A stretch of 54,578 nucleotides of DNA from a virus (IMGVR_UViG_3300025154_000124:1-54578); one strand, 5' to 3'; positions 7,312 through 24,266 are shown, counted from the first letter of the stretch. Notes: generated by a model not told the origin, from the letters alone. Program-made: numbers and translations.

Positions 7312-7316
7312 GGGGT

Positions 7317-7338
7317 TTGGGGGCGCGCACGCCTCCAA
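7317..7338 (+). other. GC-rich hairpin/cruciform downstream of VR/IMH
   Basis: TTGGGGGCG-CGCA-CGCCTCCAA: 9-bp stem with one G-T, 4-nt loop, just after the target stop codon. Confidence 0.75.
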
Positions 7339-7362
7339 TAAGGTAACGAGACAACAGAACAT

Positions 7363-7616
7363 AGGGATATAGGGTGCATGCTTGCCCACTTCGGTGGTAA
7401 CTGGAACAATGGCGCGAATGCGGGCCTTTCGTACTGGAACTTGAACAATTCCTCGTCGAATGCGAATGTGAACATCGGCAGGCAGACTCTTATTAGAAAC
7501 TTTCAAAACTATTTGCATCCTATATTCCTCACCCCTTGGTGGAAATTTCGCCGCGAAGAACAGGGATTAGTAGGTTTCTCGAAATTCCCTGAGGCTAATA
7601 AGAAGGTAGGAATTTT
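7363..7616 (+). ncRNA. Predicted structured DGR template RNA (TR plus flanks)
   Basis: 7363-7378 pairs with 7514-7529 (16 bp, two G-U). A further stem is CAGGGA/TCCCTG at 7561-7591. Ends are approximate. Confidence 0.6.
7382..7485 (+). repeat. DGR template repeat (TR)
   Basis: AAC/AAT-rich copy of VR with 25 adenines; diverges from VR at non-A positions from 7487 (IMH vs IMH*). Confidence 0.96.
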
Positions 7617-8681: not shown

Positions 8682-8826
8682 GTTTGACCAATTAACGCAG
8701 TATCTTACGCAAATACCACCCGTTGACATGGGAGATCATTATTTTGTTGGTATTGCCGTAATGACAGCGTCTTCGGTTTTTGATGATGAGCTTGAGGATT
8801 TACTATTAGCCGAAATGGGGGCCTAA
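8641..8826 (+). CDS. Small hypothetical protein (possible tail-fibre assembly-type)
   Basis: 61-aa acidic ORF overlapping the RT 3' end. Confidence 0.5.
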   Translation: MPDEKPYVYAPIFEFDQLTQYLTQIPPVDMGDHYFVGIAVMTASSVFDDELEDLLLAEMGA

Positions 8827-8829
8827 ATA

Positions 8830-8997
8830 ATGACGAGAGATGAGTTTTTAACTAAAATGCTCGAAAAAGGTAAAGTTACGCAAGCGCAAGCCAATAGAAT
8901 TAAGGCAAAAGATTCCGCAAAAGAAACTTATCGTAAAGATAAAGCAAAGATGAACAAAAGCGAGATACAGGGTGTATTGGATACCTTATTGAGCTAA
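8830..8997 (+). CDS. Small basic hypothetical protein (55 aa, MTRDEFLTKMLEKGKVTQ...)
   Basis: Translated by hand; tight spacing to the previous gene; resembles small post-tail-fibre (XkdX-like) genes by position. Confidence 0.5.
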   Translation: MTRDEFLTKMLEKGKVTQAQANRIKAKDSAKETYRKDKAKMNKSEIQGVLDTLLS

Positions 8998-9027
8998 AGG
9001 CGTAGCCAGTTAAAGGGGATATATTTA

Positions 9028-9189
9028 GTGTGTAGTAATGTAATCGGTATTTGCGAGCACCTTCTGGAGTTAATCGACACGCAGGAAAGCACGATAGCAA
9101 AGCAAAATGAGATAATCGCGAGGCTTATGAACGAGGGTTTTGAGCAGGAGAATCTAATAAAGGTGCTGATGCGAGAACGCGGCGAATAA
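9028..9189 (+). CDS. Small coiled-coil hypothetical protein (53 aa)
   Basis: GTG start after AAAGGGGA; translated by hand. Confidence 0.5.
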   Translation: MCSNVIGICEHLLELIDTQESTIAKQNEIIARLMNEGFEQENLIKVLMRERGE

Positions 9190-9259
9190 GCACCTTAACT
9201 ACACCGCAATAGCGGTTATTTTTTTATGGGTAGCAACGATTAGAGGTGGAAAAGGCGGT

Positions 9260-9514
9260 GTGCTAATGACGGAGCAAGGGCTAATGTCTGATATTCGCGA
9301 GCGCCTAGCAAGGCTTGAGACAAAAATTGATAACTTAAATGACCTGAGCAAAAAGGTGGATGAGACAGCTAACAAGGTGGCTGAAATCGAAGCTCGGTCG
9401 AAGTCTAACACCCACCGCATTGATGCAATTGAAAAGAACCTAAACTGGCTCTGGCGTACAATCGTCGGGGCCGTTATTGTTGCCGGCATTGGGGCGCTGG
9501 CTATTTTTAAGTAG
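9260..9514 (+). CDS. XhlA-like hemolysin/holin-associated protein
   Basis: Coiled coil, SNTHRIDAIEKNLNWLWR, single C-terminal TM; directly before the endolysin. Confidence 0.8.
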   Translation: MLMTEQGLMSDIRERLARLETKIDNLNDLSKKVDETANKVAEIEARSKSNTHRIDAIEKNLNWLWRTIVGAVIVAGIGALAIFK

Positions 9515-9526
9515 GGAGGGATTATC

Positions 9527-10342
9527 TTGCGAGCAGTCATCAACTACGGTCACGGTCCCAAGAACGTCGGCAAAGATCCGGGAGCCATTGGGCCAACCGG
9601 ATATCAAGAGGCCACTCAAAACAAAGAGGTAGGCGATTTGGTTGTCGTTAAACTTAAGTCAAACGGTTGGAACATCCTAGCGGTCCAAGACGGTGATCTG
9701 GACGATGTCACCGACCAAGCAAACGACTTTAAGCCGGATGCTTTCCTTTCGATCCACGCTAACTCCTTTACAAGTCCAAGCGCAAACGGGATTGAAACAA
9801 TAGCGCTGGCGCCTGGTGGAATGGGGGAAAAGATAGCCCGAGAGATCCAGCGGGAGTTGGTAGCGGACACAGGGCTCACAGACCGGGGGGTAAAGTTTGC
9901 TAACTTGCACGTACTCAGGGAGACGAAGGGTTATCCTGCGGTACTGGTGGAGGTTGGGTTTATCTCTAACCCTACGGAAGAGGCGCTGATGAAGCAGGGT
10001 GAGTGGGATGAGCTTGTAGCGTCGGCTATTTGCCGTGGTTTCAGTAGGGCGCACGGAGAGCCCTATATAGAGTGGAAGAAGGGAGTGATAGACGTGTCCT
10101 TGGATGTAGCAGTTTTGCTGAACACCAAGGAAGACTACTGGGCCGGTGCTGATGCAGCGGAGAAGAACGGTAATTGCGCGGTGTTTGTGCGGGGCGTAGA
10201 TAAGTCGGTGCCCAAGGATGCGATGAGTGCTAAGAAGTTGATTGTGGTGGGTGGACCGACTACGGGACATGCGGGAGAGGTGTTACTGAGTGGACGAACT
10301 AAGTTCGACACGGCTGCAGAGGTTGGGAAATATCTAGGGTAG
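9527..10342 (+). CDS. Endolysin, N-acetylmuramoyl-L-alanine amidase (Amidase_3) with C-terminal wall-binding region
   Basis: GHG..DPGA, SIHANS, LHVLRET and AVLVEVGFISN motifs; CWB2-like IVVGG...LSGRTKFDTA at the C-terminus. Confidence 0.93.
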   Translation: MRAVINYGHGPKNVGKDPGAIGPTGYQEATQNKEVGDLVVVKLKSNGWNILAVQDGDLDDVTDQANDFKPDAFLSIHANSFTSPSANGIETIALAPGGMGEKIAREIQRELVADTGLTDRGVKFANLHVLRETKGYPAVLVEVGFISNPTEEALMKQGEWDELVASAICRGFSRAHGEPYIEWKKGVIDVSLDVAVLLNTKEDYWAGADAAEKNGNCAVFVRGVDKSVPKDAMSAKKLIVVGGPTTGHAGEVLLSGRTKFDTAAEVGKYLG

Positions 10343-10354
10343 GAGGTTGTCAAA

Positions 10355-10627
10355 ATGCCTAAAGTTGAAATACTCAACAGACCTGATGGGCAATTCGGAG
10401 CATACGCAGTATATTGTTCGGGCTGTAAAACTCATCACGCTTTCGATGAAAGATGGACATTTAATGGAGATTTTGAAAAGCCAACATTTACCCCCTCGAT
10501 GCTAGTTAATCAACATCGTCCCGAAAGTAGATGCCATAGTTTTGTAACAGATGGAAAGATACAATTTCTCAGTGATTCATACCATGAGCTCGCAGGTCAG
10601 ACGGTTGATTTGCCTGAGGTAGATTAA
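10355..10627 (+). CDS. DUF6527-like small Cys/His protein
   Basis: CxxC..H, WTFNGD..PTFTPS and CHSFVTDG.I.FLSD..H.LAGQTV pattern, recognised from memory. Confidence 0.65.
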   Translation: MPKVEILNRPDGQFGAYAVYCSGCKTHHAFDERWTFNGDFEKPTFTPSMLVNQHRPESRCHSFVTDGKIQFLSDSYHELAGQTVDLPEVD

Positions 10628-10656
10628 ATTCGCAAGCGCTTTCCAAAACGAAAGGA

Positions 10657-11376
10657 ATGATCTCAATGATTTTAAATATGAAGGAAGCCGTTAAAACGCT
10701 TTTTAACAGAAAACAAGTTATTATCCTTACTGAACACGATGAGAAACTTGGTGGTAAATTAATATGCAAGCAGGGAGGAAAATTCGCGGTTAAGAAACTT
10801 GACGGAAAAGAAATCCCTATCTGGTTGAGTAGTATGCGTTTTATTGGGCTGGATGGCTTTGAAGTAATAGAGTGCAAGGGGGCCGATGGAAGCTCAAGTA
10901 TTTTGCTGGAAAACGGCATACCGGATGAAGTGAGAACTGGATTTAAACACTTAGATAATCCGGATAGTTCAGAAATACTACGATTATCCAACATACTCAT
11001 AGAGCAGCATAACCAGTTAATAGCGTTATACAAGACAGAATTATCAAGGACAAAGAAGGCAAGTAAAATAAGTGATAGGCTATTATGGGATATAGACAAA
11101 GCACAAGGTAATTTAATGGACTTAAGTAAAGAGCTTACAAGCTGGGAAATGCAATATAAAAAGCAAAAGAATAAAGAAAATGGCAATATATGTTTTAGGG
11201 TTGGAGATCCTTTTGATTTTGAAAATATTGTTGCAGCAGAAGTTTTCAATAAGGGTAGGAGCGGCCTAAGTAGATTATTTAGGCGTGATCAATTTGAGGA
11301 ATTTGCAATTATACAACAAAAAAATGGTGCCATTGGAATCTTTAGCGATTTCTGGACAGTTTATGCTGTAGGGTAA
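10657..11376 (+). CDS. Hypothetical protein with central coiled coil
   Basis: 239-aa ORF, AT-rich, AAAGGA RBS. Confidence 0.65.
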   Translation: MISMILNMKEAVKTLFNRKQVIILTEHDEKLGGKLICKQGGKFAVKKLDGKEIPIWLSSMRFIGLDGFEVIECKGADGSSSILLENGIPDEVRTGFKHLDNPDSSEILRLSNILIEQHNQLIALYKTELSRTKKASKISDRLLWDIDKAQGNLMDLSKELTSWEMQYKKQKNKENGNICFRVGDPFDFENIVAAEVFNKGRSGLSRLFRRDQFEEFAIIQQKNGAIGIFSDFWTVYAVG

Positions 11377-11645
11377 TGGGCCGAGCAGGCTGTTTACCTG
11401 CTTTTGGTTTTGCCAAAATGAAAGGGGAGGGAATGGGTTGAATATTATACTCGCCCTATTGATGATCGTGGCTGGATTACTTATTTTGGGCGCGTCGAGC
11501 CAACCGCATATGCGGAGTCCTGAACACTCTAAAATTAGGCACCCTATGAAAATATTAAACGGGTAAACCTTAATAAGGATGCAGCAACCAACTCGTTACT
11601 AAATAGTTAATATAATTTATTTAACAAGGGAGGAGTTTAACCCCA

Positions 11646-12758: not shown

Positions 12759-13613
12759 ATGTATGAAATCATTGATGCCTCTTCATGGGAAAGAGATGAG
12801 TACAAAGGTAAAGGGTCAAAAGAGAAGATAATGCTGGTAGAGCCTGAAACTAGAAGATTGGTAATGTTTAAATACGCTACTGAGGGATCGGGAGATACTT
12901 GGTCAGAAAAAATTGCTTCAGAGATTGGAAAATGTATTGGGTATAATGTGCAAGAAGTTAAACTCGGCGTATTTAACGGTATCCATGGTTCGCTTTCATA
13001 TTGGTTTCTAGAACGTGGAGATCCTCTTTATGAGGGTGCTGATCTAGTGGAAAACGACGAGTTTGACGTACGTAGTAGACCTAATTTGCAGTTCATAAAA
13101 CAACTTTTAGACTGCGACAATGAAGGATTATTCCCCAAATTCATGGAAATTGTTATTTTTGATATTTTGATTGGCAATACTGATAGACACATGGAAAATT
13201 GGGGTATTATCAAAGATGAAAATGGTTTATCCTCATTAGCTCCAGCGTATGATAATAGTTCTAGTCTTGGTCGAGAATTCAATTCAAACCCAGTGAAACT
13301 AGGCATAAGACTTAAAAATTCTAGAGTCTTTGAACAGTATTGCAAAAAGGGAATTTACTTTTACGGGTGGCTTGGTGAAGAAAAGATTCCGCATTTAAAA
13401 TACTCAGAAATCATATATAGTAATTATTCGGATATTATATATCCTCACGTAATTAAGCTTAATAAGCTCACCGATCAACTTATTAATGACATTATCCGAA
13501 GAATACCTCACAATATTATGACGACAGATCTGAAGGATTTCGTTGTAAGGTTTCTTATTTATAGAAGGAATTATTTGTTGAACTTAATAAAGGGGGATAA
13601 TGATGAATGCTAA
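12759..13613 (+). CDS. HipA-like Ser/Thr kinase (lacking N-subdomain)
   Basis: GSKEK, MFK, WSEKIA, catalytic GNTDRHMENWG and LAPAYDNSSSL motifs. Confidence 0.88.
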   Translation: MYEIIDASSWERDEYKGKGSKEKIMLVEPETRRLVMFKYATEGSGDTWSEKIASEIGKCIGYNVQEVKLGVFNGIHGSLSYWFLERGDPLYEGADLVENDEFDVRSRPNLQFIKQLLDCDNEGLFPKFMEIVIFDILIGNTDRHMENWGIIKDENGLSSLAPAYDNSSSLGREFNSNPVKLGIRLKNSRVFEQYCKKGIYFYGWLGEEKIPHLKYSEIIYSNYSDIIYPHVIKLNKLTDQLINDIIRRIPHNIMTTDLKDFVVRFLIYRRNYLLNLIKGDNDEC

Positions 13614-14340
13614 AAAACAAAATGAACTTTGGTTGGCATGGAAAGACACTAATTCTCGCGAAAGATTTGTAGTTGGCCTCCTGCAGTATGGTTTAGAAGG
13701 GTATCGTTTTAAATATATTGAAAATGAAGGAACGAATAATCTTAGCGAGGCTCTGGAGCGAGGATTTAAGTTGTTACCAGCTTTTCCGGATAAGGCACAA
13801 GAATATCACCAGAAGGAATTATTCCAAGTTTTTCTTAATAGGCTACCGAGTAGAAAAAGAAAAGATACGCAGCTCTTTCTAGAAAAGAAGGGTCTTTCTT
13901 TAGATTGTAGCGATTATGAACTCTTAAAGAAAACAGGAGGAAAATTACCTACTGATTCATTAGAATTTGTTGAACCATTTACTTTCAAAAGTGGTGAAAC
14001 ATTTAATATTGAATTTTTCATTGCGGGTCTTAGGTATTATGAAATTGATAAGATTCCAAGCCAAGAATTGTTGCCTAACACTAAGTTATTATTGAAATTG
14101 GAGCCGGATAACCCATTTGACTCGCATGCTATTAAAGTGCTTACTTTAGATGCTAAGAAATTGGGACACGTTCCGGTATTTTATAGTAGGTATATTGATT
14201 TGGCTGTTAAAACGGGAGATATCACTTCAGTTATAATTTCTTTCGATCCGGAGTCAGATTACGGTGAGAAATTACTCATCAAGGTTAGCGGAAATTCTGA
14301 TTTAGCGCGGGTTATTGAGAATCTAGATTCGACGCCTTAA
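13600..14340 (+). CDS. HipS-like N-terminal domain + HIRAN domain protein
   Basis: VGLL...YRFKY...LPAFP...LFQVFLNRLP (HipA N-subdomain/HipS-like); IAGLRYY..LEPDNPFDSHAIKV..LGHVP (HIRAN); overlaps the kinase stop. Confidence 0.85.
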   Translation: MMNAKKQNELWLAWKDTNSRERFVVGLLQYGLEGYRFKYIENEGTNNLSEALERGFKLLPAFPDKAQEYHQKELFQVFLNRLPSRKRKDTQLFLEKKGLSLDCSDYELLKKTGGKLPTDSLEFVEPFTFKSGETFNIEFFIAGLRYYEIDKIPSQELLPNTKLLLKLEPDNPFDSHAIKVLTLDAKKLGHVPVFYSRYIDLAVKTGDITSVIISFDPESDYGEKLLIKVSGNSDLARVIENLDSTP

Positions 14341-14390
14341 TCCCACTGAAAGCGTAGGGGTATCGGTCGAAGAGTTGGTTAGAATATGCC

Positions 14391-14428
14391 AAGGTCCTTA
14401 CTAGTGTAGTAGGGGCCTTTTTATTTTT
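14391..14428 (+). terminator. Intrinsic terminator after kinase-HIRAN pair
   Basis: AAGGTCCTTACTA-GTG-TAGTAGGGGCCTT followed by a T-rich tract. Confidence 0.7.
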
Positions 14429-14496
14429 GGGGACAGGTTTCCCCATACTTCGCGCGAGAGTTGTGAGATGATTAGGTTCCAAGGTAGGTGTAATTA

Positions 14497-14829
14497 ATGA
14501 TAACTGTACAAACAAGGAATTATATAAGCGCCGTAAATAACAAAGGCTATACTCGAAGCACGTTTAATAACTATGTTGAACAATGTGATGGTATTGATAA
14601 GCTAAAAAAGAAAGACCTTGATGAGATAATTCGTCAGCTTCCGTCAGATTATACTATTAACGATGTTGTATTTATGGATATCTATAGATTGGTTTCAGCG
14701 AACGAGACTGGAAGAATTATAAACAGATGGACATGGATAGCAGGAAGCGCATCAGTTTTGAGCTTAGTTGTATCGGTTATTAGTCTATGTATATCAATTA
14801 TTACTCTAGCTAGGAGTACGCCACCATGA
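14497..14829 (+). CDS. Hypothetical protein with C-terminal TM helix
   Basis: 110-aa ORF, AAGGTAGGT RBS, hydrophobic C-terminus. Confidence 0.65.
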   Translation: MITVQTRNYISAVNNKGYTRSTFNNYVEQCDGIDKLKKKDLDEIIRQLPSDYTINDVVFMDIYRLVSANETGRIINRWTWIAGSASVLSLVVSVISLCISIITLARSTPP

Positions 14830-15073
14830 AAATCCTCTCAACCCCCATCGAGGTCCTAGCCACTTCGAAATCGACGGCACACCCCACGCACTCCGCTTAA
14901 AGCTCAACAGTGAAACAATCAAGATCGAGCAGGTCCTCTCCGTATCGGAAGAGAAGCTAGCCGGCAATCGAATGCTGTGCTTCCGATGCCAGAGGGAGAT
15001 CGATGGAGAGCTTAAGCCGTTTGAGATCAAATTCGAGCTGGGTACCTGCAAGTGGTATCTGTATAAGATGTAG
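14826..15073 (+). pseudogene. Frameshifted small conserved clostridial protein (82 aa if one base is restored)
   Basis: MKILSTPIEVLA continues in another frame as HFEIDGTP...EEKLAGNRMLCFRCQ...ELGTCKWYLYKM*. Span is 248 nt, one short of a multiple of 3. Confidence 0.7.
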
Positions 15074-15120
15074 GAACTTGGGCAGTATATCAGTCAATGT
15101 CTTTTTTCTTCTCTTTCTTC

Positions 15121-15156
15121 GCCCTCATCGTTGCTCCAGCGATGGGGGCTTTTTTA
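15121..15156 (+). terminator. Intrinsic terminator at convergent junction
   Basis: GCCCTCATCG...CGATGGGGGC followed by TTTTTT; an oppositely oriented A-tract hairpin follows. Confidence 0.65.
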
Positions 15157-15214
15157 TGCATAAAAAAGCCCCCGACTTTCGCCAGGGACCATTGAAAATA
15201 AAAATATAGCCGTA

Positions 15215-15532
15215 TCATTTAAATAATACTACAACAATCCAATAAACGTGCAGCATCGTAACGAAAGTATAAGTAATTAAAGCTAATCCAAGACCATTGA
15301 TAACTAATCTACGTGATCTATTTCTAGAATTCCAGGATAAAACACCAAGGGCGATGGGTAGAAATACCTTCATTAATAAGAGGAGATTAGGGGTCCCCAA
15401 GAGAGGCAACATTATGGGGTTCGCCTCATTAATAGCACTAATCCTTAATCCCCAAAAGGTTAGAATGTAATCTGTTATGCAAAGAATTACAACAACTATT
15501 GATGCCAAAAGTATTTTACTATCGTAGGTCAC
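15215..15532 (-). CDS. DUF5658-like small membrane protein
   Basis: D..LT..GL....EANPIM motif plus three TM segments; AGGGAGG RBS. Confidence 0.7.
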   Translation of the reverse strand: MTYDSKILLASIVVVILCITDYILTFWGLRISAINEANPIMLPLLGTPNLLLLMKVFLPIALGVLSWNSRNRSRRLVINGLGLALITYTFVTMLHVYWIVVVLFK

Positions 15533-15564
15533 GCAAAAACCTCCCTAAGGCTATTTGCCCAAAG

Positions 15565-15590
15565 AAAAAAGGCGTCCATATAACGCCTTT
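15565..15590 (-). terminator. Probable terminator after pilin gene
   Basis: AAAAGGCGT-CCATATA-ACGCCTTTT inverted repeat with A/T tracts. Confidence 0.6.
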
Positions 15591-15605
15591 ATATTAATTA
15601 TCGGC

Positions 15606-16127
15606 TTATGGGGTAACTGTAATTGTTTTATCGGTCATAACATTTCCTAGGCTGTCGTGTGCAAAAATTTTTACAGACGTTATCTTACTAGATGTCTCTA
15701 CGGGGGCCACAACAATAAGGCCTTGCAACGTGGAACCTGTAGCGGTGTCTGTGCCGGTTACCGTGTTTAATACGGATAGGGCACCGGCAGCTGGAGCGGC
15801 TGCAATAGCCGGTATAGTAGTTAAGCCTGTAAATGGATTTTTTATTGCATTAGTAGAATCGTTAGTCGCGATGCCAGTAAACTGATTAAAAATATCGGTT
15901 CCAACGGCACTACCGGTTAGTTCGGCGCTAACCCAGCTTGATATTCTGCTCCGGACATATCCCTCAACCATTCTTTGGTTTGAGTCAATCCCCACAGACT
16001 TAGCTGTAGTTTTGATAATCCCAACCTTCGGCACAATCACGATTGCCAGGATGCCGATAACCGCAATAACGATCATGAGCTCAATAAGAGTGAATCCACT
16101 GTCCCTTTTTCGTTTCATTTCATCCAT
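15606..16127 (-). CDS. Type IV pilin / prepilin-type N-terminal cleavage-methylation protein
   Basis: Class III signal KRKRDSG|FTLIELMIVIAVIGILAIVIVP with Glu at +5. Confidence 0.93.
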   Translation of the reverse strand: MDEMKRKRDSGFTLIELMIVIAVIGILAIVIVPKVGIIKTTAKSVGIDSNQRMVEGYVRSRISSWVSAELTGSAVGTDIFNQFTGIATNDSTNAIKNPFTGLTTIPAIAAAPAAGALSVLNTVTGTDTATGSTLQGLIVVAPVETSSKITSVKIFAHDSLGNVMTDKTITVTP

Positions 16128-16351
16128 CCCCTTCTATGTGTATTTTACACCTGGACAAGTAACCTGCAAGACCCTTAACCAATAGCTCCTTTTTGGCATT
16201 TTTAAGGTCTTTGGTCCTATTGACTTACGTCTATTACCTTACATTGTACTCAACGCAGAGTGTTCTAGTCAATTAATTTTTTGAACTAATACAATGTTTT
16301 TGCATAGCGTAACCACTGTTTTAATGCTCACGATTCTTAATTGTTTTGCGA

Positions 16352-18757
16352 CTATTTGGCAGCGTTCTTTTCATCACCTCCTTTACTAGTAATCGGCGCT
16401 GGAAGGTGGGTGACGAACTTGGCATAGTTATCGTTGCACTTTATCAAGTTCAGGCTGTGGTAACGCTTTAAGCTCAGTAAATCCTCTTCAGTGTATGGGT
16501 ATAATTCACTTTTTAACTCATCGAAGTTCTTCTTATCGCTACCACTTATTAGCATATACGATGCGTTTGCGGTCCGTAGGTCCTCCCGGATCTGTTTGAT
16601 TTGATTTAAGTAATGGCAGCTTATAATAGGCTTCAGGTTAAATTTCGGGAGTTGGCTTAACTTCTTCGCTAGGAATTTCTCGGCGTTTCTAACCTGGTAT
16701 AACTCATCGATCTCTAAGTTAACCTTCGTCATTTTTGACCTATCCAGATTTTGCGCCTCAAATTGAGATTCCCGAATCTGTAGTGCCAGCCATATTTTAG
16801 TTAGCCAGTATGTTACATACACATCCCGCTCGTTGTCAGTCAGAAACATCCTCTGCGGCATCTTAATAACAATTAACTGATTCTCCTGGATCTCCTTTAC
16901 TAGATCGATGTTGTTTTCGCTGCCTTTTTTCAACATCGTTTCAAGGTAGGCGTTAACCTTTAGCTTCTGCAGCCGGTCGACTGCACCAGTGATTAGGTGC
17001 ATCCGGGTACCGACTACTTTACCCTTTTCAATAGTGTCCAACTCATGTAGGTAGCCAAGGTATTCCTCCATGTTTTCCGCCTGTTCTTTGGGTACCCGAT
17101 CAATAAATTCCTTACGTACTTTATAATTCATCAGTACCGCAAACACGTCCTTAATATTGCCGTTGGTTAGGAAAACGGTTAACGCAGCGCTCTCGAAATA
17201 CCTCCCCATCCTAGCGGTAAAATTAGCGTCATCCGCGTTTATGCTGTCCACCAATGTCATCAATAGAGCGGTCTGCTCTTTGGCGTTCTTATATTGGACA
17301 AAGGGATCTATGCTCGGCGGGACTTCGTTGTACCCCAAGCCTTGAAGGGTGTCCCAGTTATCGCACCGGAGCTCTAGTACTTTTTCCTGAGGGAATGCGC
17401 TGGCAATCTCGGTGCTTAATTGGCAGCTGCCTATATAGTCGGGGATAATAACGCACTCCCCAGCCTCGATAGCGTCTTTAGCTATGTTTGCCAAGAACTT
17501 AGATTTGCCGGCGCGATTCGGGCCAATTAAGACAAGTCCTAACATTCTGTACTCAGGGTCAGTACTCAAATAACTTTTTTGGCTAGTACCTTTAAACGTA
17601 TTAGTACCTACGCACATAACCCCGGTAAGAAGTTCTTCGGGTACTTCCGATTCAAGCGTTCCGATCCGTTCGATGAACTTGTGCTTCTCCAGTAGCTCCC
17701 TACCCGGTAGCGCGATAAAATTAGAGCACTCATTTTCACTAGCCTTGAAGGATGTGGCACCCCTTATTCTAGTGCCTAACGGATTAAACTTACCATACAA
17801 ACGCTTATGGGTTAAAGAGTTATCCTCCGTGATCGTATCAAAGCTCTGGGCAAGACTCTTGGCATTGTTGTACTGCCGCATCTTATCCTTGCTTTCGCTT
17901 AGCACTAAAATTTGAGTATCCAGGACCATGCTTTTACCCTTGGACAGGGTGTATTCGGATATGATCTTGGTATTTCTAAGACTAGAGATAATCTGATCAA
18001 ATACTTCGTATTCCTTTGACCGAATCGCCTTTTTGTTTTCCCCAGCAAGGATTGCGCTCGCACTGTTAATAAGACCGTTTAATTGAGTGAAAGCCCATTT
18101 AAGCAGGTATCCTACGTTCGCTACATTTTGGTCAACCGGTAGATCGCTACGCAACTTCGCTATGGTTTTCTTATACTTAGTAGGCCACGAAAATTGGGAC
18201 GTAGGAATAAAGTTATAAAATATCCCTACCTTGTCGCCATCCTCCATGATGTCCACGATGTTAAGATTTGCCTCTAGTAGGTCATTATTGCGTTTGTCTA
18301 CGGCCAGACTTAAGCCGTCTTCCTTGCGATAAAACAGATGATACTTGGTTGCGGAATCCCCAAATGCGGGGATCGTGACTATATCGGCAACAGGTTTTGC
18401 CGTGAGTCCTTTCCAAGTGCTGGATAGCTTCTCTTGTAAAATGCTCGAGTATTGCTTAGGGACAATAAAGTAGAACTCGATACGCTTCTTTTCAATGTAT
18501 ATAAAGTAGGAAACTTTAGGTGCCGTGGCTATCGAATACTTAGTACCAAGCATAAATTCCCTGCCAAGGATAGTAATAAGCTTTCCGTGTTCAACCTTGA
18601 TGCTTCGCTTAATGTCTCGGTACAAAGATCCTATGGTCGTAGCGATATTAGCCGTGGCATTGTTTAATATAGAGTTGTTAGGCGTTAGCTTGATATACAT
18701 ATACTCGGGATGAACGAGGGTAATAAACTTGCTGAACTTAACGGATTTAGATTTCAT
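16352..18757 (-). CDS. VirB4/TraG/HerA-FtsK superfamily P-loop ATPase
   Basis: Walker A GPNRAGKS, Walker B LEIDELYQ; 801 aa with a long N-terminal region. Confidence 0.75.
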   Translation of the reverse strand: MKSKSVKFSKFITLVHPEYMYIKLTPNNSILNNATANIATTIGSLYRDIKRSIKVEHGKLITILGREFMLGTKYSIATAPKVSYFIYIEKKRIEFYFIVPKQYSSILQEKLSSTWKGLTAKPVADIVTIPAFGDSATKYHLFYRKEDGLSLAVDKRNNDLLEANLNIVDIMEDGDKVGIFYNFIPTSQFSWPTKYKKTIAKLRSDLPVDQNVANVGYLLKWAFTQLNGLINSASAILAGENKKAIRSKEYEVFDQIISSLRNTKIISEYTLSKGKSMVLDTQILVLSESKDKMRQYNNAKSLAQSFDTITEDNSLTHKRLYGKFNPLGTRIRGATSFKASENECSNFIALPGRELLEKHKFIERIGTLESEVPEELLTGVMCVGTNTFKGTSQKSYLSTDPEYRMLGLVLIGPNRAGKSKFLANIAKDAIEAGECVIIPDYIGSCQLSTEIASAFPQEKVLELRCDNWDTLQGLGYNEVPPSIDPFVQYKNAKEQTALLMTLVDSINADDANFTARMGRYFESAALTVFLTNGNIKDVFAVLMNYKVRKEFIDRVPKEQAENMEEYLGYLHELDTIEKGKVVGTRMHLITGAVDRLQKLKVNAYLETMLKKGSENNIDLVKEIQENQLIVIKMPQRMFLTDNERDVYVTYWLTKIWLALQIRESQFEAQNLDRSKMTKVNLEIDELYQVRNAEKFLAKKLSQLPKFNLKPIISCHYLNQIKQIREDLRTANASYMLISGSDKKNFDELKSELYPYTEEDLLSLKRYHSLNLIKCNDNYAKFVTHLPAPITSKGGDEKNAAK

Positions 18758-18768
18758 CTCAATACCTC

Positions 18769-19389
18769 CTACTCTAGATTTAAGTAAGGAGCTGGATCCA
18801 CCGAGCGTCTACCCTGATCAAAGCGTATTTCGAAGTGTACGTGCGGACCGGTTGACCTTCCAGTATTCCCTGACAGGGCGATAATTTCACCTTGTTTAAC
18901 CGGTTGACCAACGATTACTAATACCTGGCTGTTGTGGGCATACATTGTTTGGGTACCGTCTGGATGGTTAAGCTCTACTACATTGCCGACTATGTTCCCC
19001 ATATATCCTGCATCGTGTACCGTTCCGGACTTACTGGCGAGGACCCTAGTGCCTTCACTTACGCCAAAGTCTATACCGTGATGAAATCCCCCGTCACGAG
19101 GTCCGAAAGGGGAGGAAACAGGACCAACGACAGGAACAACATAATCCGACGCTGTAATAGGAGCTGCTTGAGCCGGTGGGCCAAGAACGGCCACAATCAT
19201 GATGTAAGAAACCAGTAATATCCCGGCATAACGAATACCCTGCTTTAGTCCGGCGACGTACAATATTACAAGTATGGTACAGCCAAGTATGGTAACTGTG
19301 TGCATATAGCTCACAAACAGATCGGGCTTAGCAGTTATCAGTGCGACGAGAGCCGCCAGTACTCCTCCCTTTAATGCAAGTGCAAGCAT
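18769..19389 (-). CDS. Membrane-anchored M23 family peptidoglycan peptidase
   Basis: SSPFGPR, HHGIDF, YAHN and GNTGRSTGPHVHFE motifs; N-terminal TM segments. Confidence 0.92.
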   Translation of the reverse strand: MLALALKGGVLAALVALITAKPDLFVSYMHTVTILGCTILVILYVAGLKQGIRYAGILLVSYIMIVAVLGPPAQAAPITASDYVVPVVGPVSSPFGPRDGGFHHGIDFGVSEGTRVLASKSGTVHDAGYMGNIVGNVVELNHPDGTQTMYAHNSQVLVIVGQPVKQGEIIALSGNTGRSTGPHVHFEIRFDQGRRSVDPAPYLNLE

Positions 19390-19400
19390 CTAGAAACCTC

Positions 19401-19724
19401 CTAACTTAAGAAATCTTCAATTCCAAATACGAATCTAGGTATTAATATTAACAAGGCAACAATAGCACCATAAGCAATAGACTTCTGTTTGACTCCATCG
19501 TAATCCCCGTTAAGACCTCCCTGAATTGCATCCAGCGCCCACTTTCCGATAATAACCCATTTGCCAACGGAGAATATTTTCTTGTATGCTCTCAGTCCGC
19601 CGTCGTCTATACTGCCCGCCGCTAAGGCCGTACCAGGGATAAGCAATAAAATAGCTGTAGCAATTCCGACTTGGATATAAAATGATTTATGTCGTCGAAA
19701 ATGGTTAACAACTTTTACCAACAT
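19401..19724 (-). CDS. TrbC/VirB2-like small membrane protein
   Basis: Signal peptide ending ALAA followed by two hydrophobic helices; AAAAGGAG RBS. The family call rests on architecture and context. Confidence 0.55.
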   Translation of the reverse strand: MLVKVVNHFRRHKSFYIQVGIATAILLLIPGTALAAGSIDDGGLRAYKKIFSVGKWVIIGKWALDAIQGGLNGDYDGVKQKSIAYGAIVALLILIPRFVFGIEDFLS

Positions 19725-19814
19725 GGTATTCCACTCCTTTTCGGTATATTTTCGATGGTTGTCGAATAAAGTTTAAAAACTTTAAACTTAATAGGGAAAG
19801 TCTTGCCTTCTGTC

Positions 19815-19858
19815 AAGAGCTTCGATGTCCTGCGGGATGTCGGGGCTTTTTGGTTTTT
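19815..19858 (+). terminator. Plus-strand intrinsic terminator inside a minus-strand operon
   Basis: AAGAGCTTCGATGTCC...GGATGTCGGGGCTTTT pairs only with G-U on the + strand and is followed by TTTTTGGTTTTT. Confidence 0.5.
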
Positions 19859-20066
19859 AAGACCTTTCGGCTTTAAGATTGAGCATCAATTCCCGAGCCA
19901 CCAACCGGGCCGCATCCGGGGTAATGGGTTCCGGCGGCTTACTTGGGCTGATGCCGAAGTACTGGCGGAGTGCCATGCGAACAATCGTACTTAGTTCACC
20001 ATCTGGTATAGCGTCCAACCTCGGTCCAATGCTGGGATCATCCCAAAATGTTCTGCGTTTTTTCAC
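19857..20066 (-). CDS. Small ribbon-helix-helix-like regulator (69 aa)
   Basis: GTG start after GAGGGGTGAGG; ELSTIVRMALRQYF helix pattern. Confidence 0.5.
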   Translation of the reverse strand: MKKRRTFWDDPSIGPRLDAIPDGELSTIVRMALRQYFGISPSKPPEPITPDAARLVARELMLNLKAERS

Positions 20067-20108
20067 AGCCTCACCCCTCGACGTTTTGTATGACTGGCGT
20101 AGTATAAT

Positions 20109-20179
20109 GTAAGACACTGTGTGATCGTGTTCGCTTAGTGTCTTACTGTTTGATATATGATATAGACTAAAGTCTATAT
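20109..20179. promoter_or_regulatory. Two perfect inverted repeats upstream of the RHH/VirB2/M23/ATPase operon
   Basis: GTAAGACACT-N18-AGTGTCTTAC (20109-20146) and ATATAGACT-AA-AGTCTATAT (20160-20179). Confidence 0.6.
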
Positions 20180-20211
20180 TTATGCCCAAAAAAATAAAAA
20201 ATATATTTGAC

Positions 20212-20430
20212 CTACTTGAATAAAGAAGGCCAAATATATTCCATCGAGTACCCGAGGGCTACCGATATCATTGCTGCTCGCACAAGAGTAAGTCGTTTTA
20301 CCTTGCCGGCAATGATATCGCTTATGTCACTTTGGTAAAGTCCAATCATGTCAGCAAGATCTTTCTGTACCATGCCGCGTTTATCTAGTATTTCCTGTAT
20401 CCTATTGTCTGCCAACAGATCATAATTCAT
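20212..20430 (-). CDS. XRE-family HTH regulator (72 aa)
   Basis: NRIQEILDKRGMVQKDLADMIGLYQSDISDI; start re-set to the ATG after GGTGGTG. Confidence 0.82.
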   Translation of the reverse strand: MNYDLLADNRIQEILDKRGMVQKDLADMIGLYQSDISDIIAGKVKRLTLVRAAMISVALGYSMEYIWPSLFK

Positions 20431-20704
20431 CGCATCACCACCATAGGAAAATACTTCCACATGGTGTTTGTGAAATCCTGCAAGCGTAATTTTGGCGTTT
20501 TGCGCGTAATATATAGACTTAAGGTTATCTTTCTTGACCAATTGTTCATAATTCATTCGACATGGTTTTCGAGATTTCGACCAAGAAAGGGGTATATGCT
20601 TGTAATATCGTTGATTATTACGATTGATGGAATTTATAGGTAACAACGAATGGAGATGGGCGCTTGGCATTGATTAGGGGTCTAGGCAGAAACGTAAAGG
20701 AGGA

Positions 20705-20926
20705 GTGGTTATATTCCAAATTACATTGCGTGCTATCAGGATTTCTTGCGGGTACACAGGTGATGAGGTTGCTAGGTGCTGCGATGTACCCGTAGGGGAT
20801 ATAAATAAGGCTGAAATAGATTCAAGCGAGATGGCATATAGTTTATTATCTAAAATGGCTGATCTTTATAAGGTCGCAATAGATCGTATTTATTTAGGGC
20901 CTGAGGGTAACGAAAGGGTAACGTAA
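20705..20926 (+). CDS. XRE-family HTH protein, paralogue of the Cro-like gene
   Basis: FQITLRAIRISCGYT..EVA...YLGPE aligns with FRITWRAARVNRGYN..EVA...YCGPE of 23232-23477. Confidence 0.75.
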   Translation: MVIFQITLRAIRISCGYTGDEVARCCDVPVGDINKAEIDSSEMAYSLLSKMADLYKVAIDRIYLGPEGNERVT

Positions 20927-21176
20927 TTCCGATGAAGGTGGAGTTTTATTAATAAAGATGTTACAAGTATGCAAGAGTCAAATAACCTCTAGGTTAGCCT
21001 GTAGTGCGTCTTTGCGGTCTATCAATAAAGATATTACAGTTAGGGGATATAGTGGGCATGAGATATTGGGTATACCTTGCATAAAAATTACGAACCTGGC
21101 TGTACCAACGGTCGAAGGGTCTTTATATACACTATTTTTACTCAAGGGTAACGAAAGGGTAACGAAATGGAACAAA
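20904..21176. other. Probable attP region with integrase arm-type direct repeats
   Basis: AGGGTAACG(A/T)A x2 at 20904-20925; x2 plus a degenerate copy at 21145-21176; AATAAAGAT(G/A)TTACA at 20951 and 21024; directly downstream of the integrase. Confidence 0.7.
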
Positions 21177-21209
21177 AGATATTCCACGCCCGAGAAAAGC
21201 GCGGAATAG

Positions 21210-22427
21210 TTAGAGGTTTTTCATGAGTTCGCTGAACTTTTTGGAGGCCTCTTTTTTCATTGTTTTTGTGGTATGCATATAGACGTATCTTGTTGTTTTA
21301 TCATCTTTATGACCGAGCCTCTCCATAATCTCCGGGAGGCTGACGCCCGCCTCAGCAAGTAAAGAAGTGTGGGTATGTCGTAATGAGTGGGGGGTCAACG
21401 ATGCGTTCAAGCTAGCGAGCTTTAACAGGCGACACATGCGTCTTTCTATGAAATTAGTAGTCTCTGGATAACCAAGAAATTTATCCTCCTGTGCAAATAT
21501 GAAATCCTTATCATGGTAAGAATCCCTGTTTTTCATGAGTGTAATATTTTGGCTTGACTTGTGCTTTTTTAACTCTTCTAAAACAACTCCATCAACGGAA
21601 ATTTTCCTTTTAGATGCCTTTGTCTTCGGTGGAGATAATTCGTAGGCCGTCGCCTTGTTGGTTGGATTGTAGTAAGTCTTGGTGATGTTGACGCTACCTT
21701 CGATAAAATCAATGTCTTTCCATTTCAGTGCACATAGCTCCCCTATTCTCACGCCTGTGTACGCCAAAAATAGAAAAATCAGATAATCCTTATCTAATCC
21801 TTTATCATTGGCAGTTTGCAGAAAAAGGGATAACTCGTCTTTTTCTAGATACTTCTCTATTTCCTCTTCCTCCTCTAACTCCTCGATCGTTTTAGTTGTT
21901 TTCGGCACTGCAGCATACCTAGTCGGGTCATTCTTGATTAACTCAAGTTCTACAGCTTTATTAAATATCATGCGTCCTGTTGTGTGCGCTCCTATGATTG
22001 AGCTTTCTGAAAATCCCCTATCTTTTAAGGTAATTAGGGCATCTTGGTATTGCTTGCGTGTTACATCTTTTAATTTTAGTTTTGCAAAGAAAGTCTTTAT
22101 TCTTGCAATCTCAATCTCCCTGACCCTAATCGTACTCTTCTTTTTGGGTTTGCCTGTGTTTTTGTAATAGCCTAGCCATTCCTTGGAAAATTGCTCGAAC
22201 GTGATATTTGACTCCTTAACATAAGTTCCTTGCTCCACTTCTTGAATCACTATACCGCATGCAAGTTGCGCAGCCTTCTTTGTTTTGAAGCCTCCTTTCT
22301 TCTCCTGCTTACGGTCTCCTGTGCTTGGATCGACGCCAACATCAACGATATACGACCAGGTTGCACCACAGCTACATTTCTTTTTGTCAGAGCAGATACA
22401 CTTTGGCCTGTAATAATATCCTTGCAT
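21210..22427 (-). CDS. int: Tyrosine integrase
   Basis: N-terminal arm-binding domain (GGFKTKKAA); TGVRIGE, HSLRHTH and LGH...T..VY catalytic motifs. Confidence 0.96.
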   Translation of the reverse strand: MQGYYYRPKCICSDKKKCSCGATWSYIVDVGVDPSTGDRKQEKKGGFKTKKAAQLACGIVIQEVEQGTYVKESNITFEQFSKEWLGYYKNTGKPKKKSTIRVREIEIARIKTFFAKLKLKDVTRKQYQDALITLKDRGFSESSIIGAHTTGRMIFNKAVELELIKNDPTRYAAVPKTTKTIEELEEEEEIEKYLEKDELSLFLQTANDKGLDKDYLIFLFLAYTGVRIGELCALKWKDIDFIEGSVNITKTYYNPTNKATAYELSPPKTKASKRKISVDGVVLEELKKHKSSQNITLMKNRDSYHDKDFIFAQEDKFLGYPETTNFIERRMCRLLKLASLNASLTPHSLRHTHTSLLAEAGVSLPEIMERLGHKDDKTTRYVYMHTTKTMKKEASKKFSELMKNL

Positions 22428-22433
22428 AATGCA

Positions 22434-23093
22434 TCACTCCTTAGACGTATGTTTTGCTGGCCTGAAGTGTCCCATATAAATTCCACATATACTCACTTGA
22501 TTTGGTAAGACTTCGATAGTCTTATGTTTGGGGTTTTCTGGTGCTAACTTTATTTGTGGTGATCCTTCCGACCACTTAATGCGTTTCAACATTCCCTCCT
22601 CGTCGCCGTTAATAAGCGCCGCAACGATTTGCCCATTGTGATCAGCCCATTGTGCGTAACGCATATAGACTATATCCCCTGATTCGATACCAGCGCCAAC
22701 CATACTGTCCCCCTTAACCTTCAGGGCATAGTCTGGTTGTTGGTTACTCAAGAAAGGGTAATGGATGTAGTCTTCAACATTCTGCTCAGCCGTTAGGCCT
22801 TCTCCTGCGCAGATTGTACCTATAAGAGGTATTGACTTATAGGTTTGAGATTTTTTAAGCGAAGAGTTTATATCTGATTTTGGAATATTTAATGCATCTG
22901 ATATTTTCTGTAGATTTCCGGGAGACATTAACGTTTTACCTAAAACATAGTCCGAAATAGTACTTGTCGATAATCCTGTTTTATCACTTAGCTCAGTTTG
23001 ACTAACACCTTTAAGGTGCAGTATTTGTTTAAGGTTGATGGAGATATCTTTAATCATTCCTATCTCAACCTCAGTGTATTTACTCCGTGCCAT
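22434..23093 (-). CDS. CI/LexA-like repressor (HTH + S24 peptidase)
   Basis: N-terminal HTH; IPLIGTICAG cleavage site; VKGDSM and MLKR catalytic motifs. Confidence 0.93.
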   Translation of the reverse strand: MARSKYTEVEIGMIKDISINLKQILHLKGVSQTELSDKTGLSTSTISDYVLGKTLMSPGNLQKISDALNIPKSDINSSLKKSQTYKSIPLIGTICAGEGLTAEQNVEDYIHYPFLSNQQPDYALKVKGDSMVGAGIESGDIVYMRYAQWADHNGQIVAALINGDEEGMLKRIKWSEGSPQIKLAPENPKHKTIEVLPNQVSICGIYMGHFRPAKHTSKE

Positions 23094-23134
23094 TGTTTTC
23101 CCTCCGGTAAAATAAAATTAACGATGATGTTACA

Positions 23135-23219
23135 TTCCGAGTATATCCGATTTTAGGCATATTTAAAAGCATTTTTTCATAAAATATATGTTGACATTCC
23201 TGTTAAATCGGATTAGTAT
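23135..23219 (+). promoter_or_regulatory. Lytic promoter and operators of the genetic switch
   Basis: TTGACA(23191)-17-TAGTAT. Operator TTCCTGTTAAATCGGATT lies in the spacer, with a degenerate copy at 23135-23152 and an exact inverted copy at 23452-23469. Confidence 0.75.
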
Positions 23220-23231
23220 AAAATCAAGGAG

Positions 23232-23477
23232 GTGGACAGGGTGAGTGCGGTTAAGGAGATATTCAGAATTACATGGCGAGCTGCAAGGGTAAACAGAGGG
23301 TACAATCAGGCTGAGGTTGCTGAATTATCTGGCAAAAACATAGATACGGTCACAAAGTATGAAAAGGATTCAACAGAAATACCGCACAACTTAATGCGGT
23401 TGTGGTTGGATTTATATAACGTACCTGAAGACCTTATTTATTGTGGTCCTGAATCCGATTTAACAGGAAAGAAATAA
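23232..23477 (+). CDS. Cro-like XRE HTH protein
   Basis: Divergent from the repressor; HTH; AAGGAGG RBS. Confidence 0.85.
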   Translation: MDRVSAVKEIFRITWRAARVNRGYNQAEVAELSGKNIDTVTKYEKDSTEIPHNLMRLWLDLYNVPEDLIYCGPESDLTGKK

Positions 23478-23501
23478 TTCTCTATAGAAAGGAAACGACC
23501 A

Positions 23502-23726
23502 ATGAAGGCTAAGCAACATATTTCCATCGATGCGTTACCTGAAGTGATCACAGCCCAAAACATAGCTGATTATCTCGGAATATCCCGGGGGCGTGTTTAC
23601 GAATTGTTTCAACGAAAGCCCACTGCCGGAGGGATACCTAACTTTGAGATAGGTCTATCCAAGAGGGTTGAAAAAAAGGATTTTATCCAGTGGATCGATG
23701 CCAGGAAGAAAGAAAAAGTTGGTTAA
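23502..23726 (+). CDS. Excisionase-like HTH_17 protein
   Basis: LPEVITAQNIADYLGISRGRVYEL...IG.SKRV.K.DF..W. Confidence 0.8.
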   Translation: MKAKQHISIDALPEVITAQNIADYLGISRGRVYELFQRKPTAGGIPNFEIGLSKRVEKKDFIQWIDARKKEKVG

Positions 23727-23766
23727 TTGTGAAAAAGCGGCCAACTAAATCAAGGAGAGGATATTA

Positions 23767-23934
23767 ATGAACATCCGCATCGAAACATGCTTAGGCCACG
23801 AGACGGCAAAAAGAAGCCCACAAAGGGCCTCAACTCAACAACCTCATATACTTCGCTCATTATTAACGGCGATTGCTCTTAGCGCTGGCATTATAACAGG
23901 ATTCATTGCTGGAGCGCACTATTTCTTGAAATAG
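23767..23934 (+). CDS. Small ORF (55 aa) with C-terminal TM, convergent with next gene
   Basis: AAGGAGAGG RBS; translated by hand. Confidence 0.45.
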   Translation: MNIRIETCLGHETAKRSPQRASTQQPHILRSLLTAIALSAGIITGFIAGAHYFLK

Positions 23935-24266
23935 GTAAAAGAAATCCAAGCGAGCGCTAAACCTGAAGCGAACCCAAAGACATAACCCAGTAAAACCTGA
24001 AATAACATCCAACGACGATCTGACCATTTCTGTCTCATGACTTCGGACTTCTTGTTAAAATAATCCAACCCGTTATGAGTTAGGTGGATAAGTGTGATTT
24101 TCTCGTTTATATCCTCCGAATAGTCAATCAGTTTTTCATTCTTAAGAATTCCTAAAGCGGTTCTTATCGAGTATGGATCTATGCCAATCAAGTCGTCGTA
24201 GAGTTCGTGTAAACCCTTATTGTATTGACTAAAATTCTCTGAATTAAACTCCATTAAAAACTTCAA
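23919..24266 (-). CDS. Moron: winged-helix-like protein with C-terminal TM
   Basis: L..LKNEKLI...LTHNGLDY pattern; own GGAGGT RBS and promoter-like motif; true start may be slightly upstream (CTG at 24293). Confidence 0.65.
   Translation of the reverse strand: MKFLMEFNSENFSQYNKGLHELYDDLIGIDPYSIRTALGILKNEKLIDYSEDINEKITLIHLTHNGLDYFNKKSEVMRQKWSDRRWMLFQVLLGYVFGFASGLALAWISFTYFKK

Follow-up and report, generated by a model that had tools for sequence, protein, structure and literature searches.

The ATPase VirB4, a signature of type IV secretion, acts in pilin extraction and in biogenesis of the type IV secretion system (T4SS) pilus. In the T4SS of plasmid R388 the genes for TrwL, TrwM and TrwK (VirB2, VirB3 and VirB4) follow one another, and a wall hydrolase, VirB1, accompanies such systems. 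In Bacillota, the conjugation systems of ICEBs1 (ConE and CwlT), pCW3 (TcpF and TcpG) and Tn916 (Orf16 and Orf14) combine a VirB4-type ATPase with a membrane-associated peptidoglycan hydrolase, and they also need VirB6-like, VirB8-like, coupling-protein and relaxase genes; to our knowledge none of them has a VirB2-like subunit or is phage-borne. Here we analyze a phage locus at positions 16,352 to 20,179 of the 54,578-nucleotide virus sequence IMGVR_UViG_3300025154_000124:1-54578, the whole of which is called the window below. Three coupled genes of this locus, for a TrbC/VirB2-like subunit, a membrane hairpin fused to an M23 peptidase and a VirB4-class ATPase, probably form the core of a conserved T4SS-like accessory cassette that would build a fibre or conduit in the cell envelope.

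Cassettes of this type have been in print for some time. The passages of Pathria et al. (2012; PMC3357382) that deal with a "DNA translocation operon" in phages 0305phi8-36 and SPO1 read its ATPase as a coupling protein, link it with MobC-like relaxase, VirB6-like and MreB-like proteins, and record that the operon can be deleted without a growth cost in the laboratory. For phage SPP1, the corresponding passages of Godinho et al. (2018; PMC6316719) give gp32 as non-essential, use HHpred to liken its C-terminus alone, collectively, to TrwB, VirB4 and FtsK, and suggest a translocon of gp31.1/gp31.2 with gp32. Additionally, the relevant part of a 2014 review (PMC4113786) mentions "FtsK/SpoIIIE" genes in gamma-like phages and speculates about sporulation; those genes may or may not be of the cassette ATPase family. 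The portion of a 2026 paper that concerns SPO1 (PMC12991052) reports that this phage forms virospores and mentions its ParM-like gene 27.9. A preliminary description of our locus had put it forward as an undescribed system, a claim that does not survive the passages on 0305phi8-36/SPO1 (PMC3357382) and on SPP1 gp31.1/gp31.2/gp32 (PMC6316719). Our search of the literature found no functional study of the cassette. What goes beyond the published passages is the assignment of the ATPase N-domain to VirB4, the universal pilin-like partner and the repeated fusions to M23.

The window, from a prophage-like virus, is a linear record of the IMG/VR virus collection, ~70% complete, that encodes a tape measure, tail proteins, a helicase and methyltransferases, with an integrase and a CI/LexA-like repressor immediately to the right of the cassette. 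A megablast search of the phage collection with positions 14000-24000 returned no near-identical DNA, and the sequencing runs listed for the cassette comprise four groundwater metagenome DNA runs, from which it may derive, and no RNA run. The features of the cassette, with the evidence for each protein of the three-gene set in brackets, are the following:

19857..20066, minus strand: small ribbon-helix-helix (RHH)-like DNA-binding protein, 69 amino acids (aa); the longest open reading frame (ORF) reaches 20189 (110 aa)
19760..19816, minus strand: promoter-like site and palindrome, possible operator, as read from the sequence
19401..19724, minus strand: 107-aa TrbC/VirB2-like membrane subunit (alignment, language-model Atlas, position)
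18769..19389, minus strand: 206-aa fusion of a membrane hairpin with a C-terminal M23 metallopeptidase (Pfam, motifs, alignment to stand-alone hairpins)
16352..18757, minus strand: 801-aa two-domain VirB4-class ATPase with no transmembrane segment (phrog_5156, AlphaFold models, fold searches)

The preliminary description had reported four co-oriented minus-strand genes, all intact, with the last three spaced 11 bp apart, and this layout holds. The four ORFs occupy 16352-18757, 18769-19389, 19401-19724 and 19857-20189, and the two gaps within the three-gene set (18758-18768 and 19390-19400) are each exactly 11 bp, and a longer gap of 132 bp separates the RHH-like gene from the 107-aa gene downstream of it. 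The two junctions are built alike, in that a TAG stop beginning TAGGAGGT is followed by N6 and then ATG, and since they are identical in this way the 801-, 206- and 107-aa genes look like one translationally coupled operon.

The 801-aa ATPase matches phrog_5156 of the PHROGs database, a family of unknown function, over residues 4-790 (E 1.1e-84), and by profile it is a member of the SPP1 gp32 / SPO1 gp27.4 family, with a profile of its relatives finding SPP1 gene 32 at 5e-106, SPO1 gp27.4 at 6e-163 and D6E gp23 at 3e-176. This is a large family: of the candidates scored in a 90%-identity database, 882 proteins reach E <=1e-5, and the family falls into 439 clusters at 50% identity. The closest relatives, at 63-91% identity, come from metagenomes, Desulfosporosinus and Desulfitobacteriaceae. 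When compared as a profile with the sequences of the PDB, the ATPase gave marginal matches only, among them VirB4 of entry 4ag5 at E 0.42. An AlphaFold model built from 73 sequences has a mean predicted local distance difference test score (pLDDT) of 90.1, and with this model the Foldseek comparison proposed in the preliminary description placed full-length TrwK/VirB4 of plasmid R388 first (8rtd_O, E 2e-13), with TrwB and HerA behind. Approximately residues 1-365 of the model form a VirB4-like N-domain; the C-domain is of RecA type and has its Walker A motif at 412-419 and its Walker B motif at D684-E685. Residues G417, K418, D684 and E685 are invariant across the 73 sequences. For the C-domain (370-792) the best match is the VirB4 C-domain of Thermoanaerobacter (4ag5; Z 27.9, root-mean-square deviation (rmsd) 3.3, 339 residues aligned), with DndH/DptH, TrwB and HerA close behind. 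The N-domain was also modelled alone (residues 1-370, pLDDT 92.7) and compared with 48,161 representative chains, among which TrwK/VirB4 gives Z 14.5 (rmsd 3.5 over 238 residues) and the next fold 8.3; its top ten Foldseek rows are all TrwK chains.

The protein had been described at first in broad terms, as an ATPase of VirB4/TraG/HerA type, and the N-domain scores narrow this to the VirB4 class. A reading as a coupling protein (VirD4/TraG/TrwB) was ruled out, as the protein has no N-terminal membrane anchor and does have a VirB4-type N-domain; in the model, the first ~365 residues make up a soluble, folded domain of VirB4 type whose N-terminus is not hydrophobic. As modelled, the 801-aa protein is thus a soluble two-domain VirB4-class ATPase, has no membrane anchor and is not a VirD4/TraG coupling protein.

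The two smaller proteins of the operon were identified by their architecture and motifs. The 107-aa protein begins with a signal-peptide-like leader that ends in ALA-AG; an amphipathic/hydrophobic helix follows and is joined by a charged loop to a transmembrane helix at the C-terminus. This pattern is kept in 32 aligned relatives and agrees with the layout of TrbC/VirB2; the alignment thereby supports the original view of this protein as VirB2-like, with a signal peptide and two transmembrane segments. Its nearest clusters in the ESM Atlas carry PF04956 TrbC (score 0.90, 181-182 of 256 features). Additionally, the gene that is its counterpart by position on plasmid pCLK passes the Pfam TrbC threshold at 28.5 bits and is named in its record as a TrbC/VirB2 family protein. 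The 107-aa protein is therefore described here as TrbC/VirB2-like in architecture, the support from sequence similarity being thin and below threshold. The 206-aa protein had been proposed to be a membrane-anchored wall peptidase, and its predicted features bear this out. It contains Peptidase_M23 (PF01551; E 1.1e-31, 109 bits) with both zinc motifs intact, HxxxD at 103-107 (H103 and D107) and HxH at 183-185 (H183 and H185), and among many M23 models it also matches the SpoIIQ model of NCBIfam. Its N-terminal membrane part, ~residues 1-75, holds a conserved two-helix hairpin that corresponds by alignment to small stand-alone genes (69-113 aa) of relatives. No Pfam domain was found in 22 such stand-alone relatives (the 23rd relative found is an M23 fusion). 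The likeness of the hairpin to VirB3 is positional only, as its gene lies between the pilin-like and ATPase genes, and a complex prediction for the ATPase N-domain with the hairpin, which scored 0.00, speaks neither for nor against binding.

The arrangement is not a chance feature of one genome. We took ~110 related loci from viral and genome collections and searched them with profiles grown from the window proteins; removal of duplicate ATPases and a requirement for a full-length ATPase and at least 1.5 kb of upstream sequence left 84 distinct loci. A pilin-like (VirB2-like) gene lies upstream of the ATPase in 84 of these 84. The hairpin was detected by profile in 70 of the 84, and nine of the 14 misses were inspected by eye, each of which has a hairpin-type or M23-hairpin ORF in the gap. 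M23 is more variable in its attachment: it is fused before the hairpin (M23>TM, where TM is transmembrane) in 39 of the 84 loci and after it (TM>M23, the arrangement of the window itself) in 6, while the hairpin is unfused in 25 loci, of which 11 have M23 as a separate gene, and any M23 is present in 56 of the 84. Fusion at both ends together with the separate genes argues that peptidase and hairpin work together, and the M23 peptidase has been recruited to the hairpin repeatedly and independently.

The flanks of the cassette vary among relatives. Upstream, an ALP_N actin-like gene was found in 26 of 96 loci and a tubulin/FtsZ-like gene in 7 of 96 (for example L023:5758-6588 and L070:5855-6937). 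These genes are accompanied by a small RHH gene and lie directly upstream of the cassette; the window has neither an Alp actin-like nor a tubulin-like gene. Downstream of the ATPase the relatives carry regulators, serine or tyrosine recombinases and assorted cargo, which in some of them includes AgrB-like and DndB-like proteins (L120:11297-11830 and L111:11041-12603).

These data bear directly on the view that the locus is a functionless, decayed piece of the tra region of an integrative and conjugative element (ICE) or plasmid that was picked up by a phage. Such a view would fit the reduction of the set relative to a complete T4SS and its position in a variable island adjoining an integrase. 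Against it, all ORFs are intact, and comparison with the relative whose ATPase is 91% identical gave ratios of nonsynonymous to synonymous substitution rates (dN/dS) of 0.053 for the ATPase, 0.063 for the M23 gene and 0.10 for the 107-aa gene, values that are rough because dS is ~1.1-1.3. The three genes are, on these estimates, under purifying selection. Moreover, the same trio is kept in the 84 distinct loci and in lytic model phages, its ATPase family spans the 439 clusters given above, and no match to conjugation Pfam models was found. Decay is contradicted by this conservation and selection, and we regard it as scarcely credible. The preliminary description had named three outcomes that would speak against a phage system, namely a fragment of a known ICE tra region, genes that are not conserved together in phages, and relaxed selection. 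None of the three was found, because the genes are conserved together, under purifying selection and not an ICE tra fragment. The cassette is a T4SS-derived phage module.

Comparison with named phages places the window in a wider group. By tblastn, the ATPase occurs in 81 of 50,697 phage records, all at <60% identity and with SPO1, SP-10, D6E and phiCp-D among them. The first word of the organism name is Bacillus in 72 of these records, "Deep-sea" (thermophilic phage D6E) in 2, Lysinibacillus in 2, and Clostridium, Terrisporobacter, Brevibacillus, Geobacillus and Alicyclobacillus in 1 each. One or more small membrane-protein genes also precede the ATPase gene on the same strand in phiCp-D, TPDSL_ph2, Wes44, 031MP004, vB_BpsM-61, SPO1 and SPP1. 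The temperate phages D6E and TPDSL_ph2 have the ATPase between lysis genes and integrase, as in the window, and the lytic phages SPO1, Wes44, 031MP004 and SPP1 have it among early or replication genes. A close described layout is that of SPP1 31/31.1/31.2/32, which has the same order: the small RHH-like gene is followed by genes for a membrane protein with a leader, for a second, small membrane protein and for an ATPase of ~800 aa without transmembrane segments. However, SPP1 is lytic, its gp31.2 has no M23 domain, and its small proteins are, apart from the leader, not significantly similar to those of the window; in hhalign the 107-aa family matches SPP1 gp31.1 at the N-terminal leader alone (E 1.2e-4). 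The operon of 0305phi8-36 and SPO1 shares the ATPase family (SPO1 gp27.4), small membrane proteins upstream and an Alp gene nearby, which in SPO1 is gp27.9 (ALP_N). In contrast to the window, those phages have a Replic_Relax/MobC-like gene, which in SPO1 is gp27.3 just downstream of the ATPase, and, according to the passages concerned, a VirB6-like gene (PMC3357382). The same passages state that the ATPase is a coupling protein of VirD4/TraG type (PMC3357382), whereas the fold of the N-domain says VirB4.

Homologues of the ATPase were also found in 36 plasmid records, at 23-44% identity over 97-98% of the length. A two-gene unit of TrbC and ATPase is present on large Clostridium botulinum/sporogenes plasmids and on Clostridium plasmids of 40-60 kb. 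For example, pCLK (L130) has at 8603-11403 a TrbC/VirB2 family gene and an 800-aa ATPase gene (23% identical) with a 4-bp overlap. This unit differs from the window in its plasmid replicon and, on pCLK, in having neither a hairpin nor an M23 gene annotated between its two members. With R388 the window shares the order of pilin-like protein, small membrane protein and ATPase, both domains of the ATPase superpose on TrwK/VirB4, and a wall hydrolase goes with the set in the way that VirB1 does in T4SS. The differences are that the window cassette lacks VirB5-VirB11, VirD4 and a relaxase, has no Pfam-level sequence similarity to the R388 system, uses an M23 hydrolase rather than a lytic transglycosylase, and belongs to a monoderm host and a phage carrier.

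The comparison with conjugation systems raises the question of whether the cassette spreads phage DNA from cell to cell independently of the virion, in a conjugation-like manner within chains or biofilms. T4SS-type parts are present, a Replic_Relax gene adjoins the ATPase in SPO1, and the idea itself appears in the passages of 2012 (PMC3357382). However, the window has no relaxase, coupling protein or VirB6/VirB8 channel; the island ORFs that were scanned with Pfam, PHROGs and NCBIfam gave no match to relaxase, VirB6 or VirB8, in line with what the preliminary description had reported missing. Among 365 ORFs downstream of the ATPase in relatives there is also no relaxase-like cluster, nor a VirB6, VirB8 or coupling-protein cluster, and 35 of the 36 plasmids with a homologue are typed as non-mobilizable. 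We therefore hold transfer of this kind to be very unlikely.

A different function would be superinfection exclusion, defence or counter-defence by a membrane ATPase complex that bars or expels incoming foreign DNA, or that shields the lysogen. Several observations point this way. The cassette lies in an accessory island between lysis genes and integrase, beside a candidate defence pair, PDC-M03; related phages grow without it, and by the passages on this point plaque formation in laboratory culture does not depend on the module (PMC3357382, PMC6316719). The C-domain resembles DndH/DptH and defence-type HerA ATPases (Z 20-26), and PADLOC gave for the ATPase a weak mad8 match only (E 6.7e-7). 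The N-domain is, however, VirB4-specific and not HerA-like, strictly lytic phages keep the cassette in early or replication regions, and the constant partners of the ATPase are a pilin-like subunit and a wall hydrolase rather than a nuclease or other effector. The HerA, DndH(DptH) and FtsK-SpoIIIE proteins share the P-loop fold of the additional-strand, conserved-glutamate (ASCE) class with the C-domain (Z 17-26), but they are without a VirB4-type N-domain, the N-termini of FtsK/SpoIIIE are transmembrane, and the partners are nucleases, Sir2 and Dnd proteins. Exclusion or defence is unlikely on this balance.

The gene upstream of the operon and the operon leader are relevant to regulation and to a possible link with sporulation. 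The RHH-like gene probably starts at GTG 20066, because the ribosome-binding site GAGGGGTGAGG precedes this codon and homologues begin just before the same beta-strand; this start gives a protein of 69 aa. The protein consists of a beta-strand and two helices, as judged by alignment with 19 relatives, and has a weak match to the ParR model of NCBIfam (E 0.031) and no match in Pfam. It likely regulates the operon or serves as an adaptor like ParR. Its RHH type lies upstream in 16 of 104 loci; in 42 of 96 that position is taken by another type (74 aa, SPP1 gene 31-like). In the 132 bp that precede the 107-aa gene lies TTGACA-17-TATTAA followed by a palindrome of 12+12 nt at 19766-19792, which we infer to be a promoter and a possible operator; the promoter-like site was not listed by the consensus scan because its -10 hexamer ends in A. 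An exact Spo0A-box heptamer is present in the same leader at 19760-19766, adjoining the palindrome.

M23/LytM domains act in engulfment and in the forespore channel (SpoIIQ). On this background the module could move the phage genome from the mother cell across the septum into the forespore, an entrapment that yields a virospore, with M23 opening septal peptidoglycan and the actin/tubulin-RHH genes bringing DNA to the pole. The named hosts of the 81 phage records, the 36 plasmid records and 35 genome loci all belong to genera that we take to be endospore formers. The Alp or tubulin genes upstream in relatives and the match of the window M23 to SpoIIQ, one of many M23 models that it matches, are consistent with delivery to the forespore, as is SPO1, in which the cassette lies beside the ParM-like gene 27.9 and which, by the portion of the 2026 paper on this phage, forms virospores (PMC12991052). 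The distribution among spore formers may, however, simply follow phylogeny. Of 401 sampled genomes of one class, 25 have the ATPase, and Spo0A is present in 24 of these 25 vs 335 of the 401 overall, a difference that is not significant in an underpowered comparison. The window shows no enrichment of Spo0A boxes (8 observed vs 6.9 expected), and upstream of the cassette in relatives they occur in 5 of 82 cases against a background of 0.045 per 350 nt, again without enrichment. Forespore delivery is, in our estimate, unlikely.

The preferred reading remains that of a T4SS-like accessory cassette carried by phages, prophages and phage-like plasmids of endospore-forming Bacillota. In such a machine the ATPase would form a hexamer that the hairpin protein anchors to the cytoplasmic side of the membrane. 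By analogy with T4SS, the VirB4-type ATPase may extract the VirB2-like subunit or polymerise it, giving a short envelope-spanning fibre or conduit. A third transmembrane helix would put the M23 domain outside the membrane, where it could cut peptidoglycan cross-links locally and so let the structure pass the thick wall, and the upstream RHH protein would repress the operon at the palindrome or tether DNA. Phage DNA is the leading candidate for the transported substrate, and is favoured because relatives have Alp/tubulin and RHH genes just upstream and SPO1 has Replic_Relax just downstream.

A number of observations count against this interpretation. The window 107-aa protein has no Pfam TrbC match, and just one of its 32 relatives comes near, at 22.0 bits vs a cut-off of 27.9; no precomputed Pfam domain is recorded for any of 57 database relatives, and the hhalign comparison of the 107-aa family with the pCLK TrbC protein was not significant (probability 0.9%). 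Up to E 0.1 the window ATPase has no Pfam or NCBIfam match, VirB4 models (CagE_TrbE_VirB, AAA_10 and others) included, and the coupling-protein domain PF10412 is found in 11 of the 120 relatives listed. The C-domain scores for DndH/DptH (Z 26.2), TrwB (25.9) and HerA (24.7) are near the 27.9 for VirB4. The hairpin has no significant VirB3 match, with two of 24 members matching PF05101 at E 0.19, and the peptidase of the M23>TM architecture has no signal peptide, so that export of its M23 domain is uncertain. The island ORFs that were scanned yielded no VirB6, VirB8, VirD4 or relaxase. Finally, the evidence on the cassette consists of genes, folds and conservation, and it is from these that assembly, secretion and DNA transfer are reasoned.

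Two genes downstream of the cassette had been described as following it and were considered here as possible parts of the same system:

15606-16127: type IV pilin, with a G-FTLIE motif (N_methyl, E 1.8e-9), downstream of the cassette
15215-15532: DUF5658 membrane protein, following the pilin gene

Both are present as described, but they do not belong to the system. Neither the pilin nor the DUF5658 gene occurs in any other related locus searched, no relatives of the pilin were found in viral contigs, and the pilin gene has its own promoter-like site (16272-16243) and terminator (15590-15568). On these grounds they were rejected as cassette parts and are window-specific add-ons, separate from the cassette. 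We found no paper that mentions DUF5658.

Other features of the window are noted here in their own right. A diversity-generating retroelement lies at 5956-8681, where a reverse transcriptase gene (7617-8681; phrog_1423, E 7.7e-107) follows a tail protein gene (5956-7311). The 3' end of the latter, 7187-7297, is repeated at 7382-7492 with 83% identity, and the two copies look like a variable and a template repeat. The PDC-M03 candidate of PADLOC consists of overlapping genes for a HipA_C-like kinase (12759-13613; component A, E 3.7e-81) and a HIRAN-domain protein (13600-14340; component B, E 1.3e-67), a pair that sits in the phage accessory island. Just 3' of the integrase gene, 20904-21179 holds five copies of an 11-nt unit (GGGTAACGAAA-like) in two groups, which may be integrase arm sites or attP. 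At 50353-51591 a ParB-like N-terminal domain is fused to a DNA methyltransferase (phrog_498, E 8.4e-142; ParB-like phrog_620, E 2.2e-49).

A selected and stable three-gene unit that combines a VirB4-class motor, a pilin-like subunit and a wall hydrolase is unexpected in tailed phages, and the family to which it belongs includes the laboratory phages SPP1 and SPO1. The cassette suggests that phages of Gram-positive spore formers make their own structure in the envelope, one with no relation to virion assembly or lysis. A speculative form of this idea, to which we give a small chance of being right, is "conjugation inside the sporangium", in which the phage genome would be passed through the sporulation septum into the forespore, or through the septa of chained cells. 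The VirB4 motor would build a conduit of the VirB2-like subunit, M23 would breach the wall of the septum, and the DNA would be delivered by filaments of Alp/TubZ together with an RHH adaptor; if this is true, the virus survives in the spore. More generally, if the machine moves DNA it would represent a new route of phage persistence or spread, and if it excludes DNA it would represent a new kind of exclusion system.

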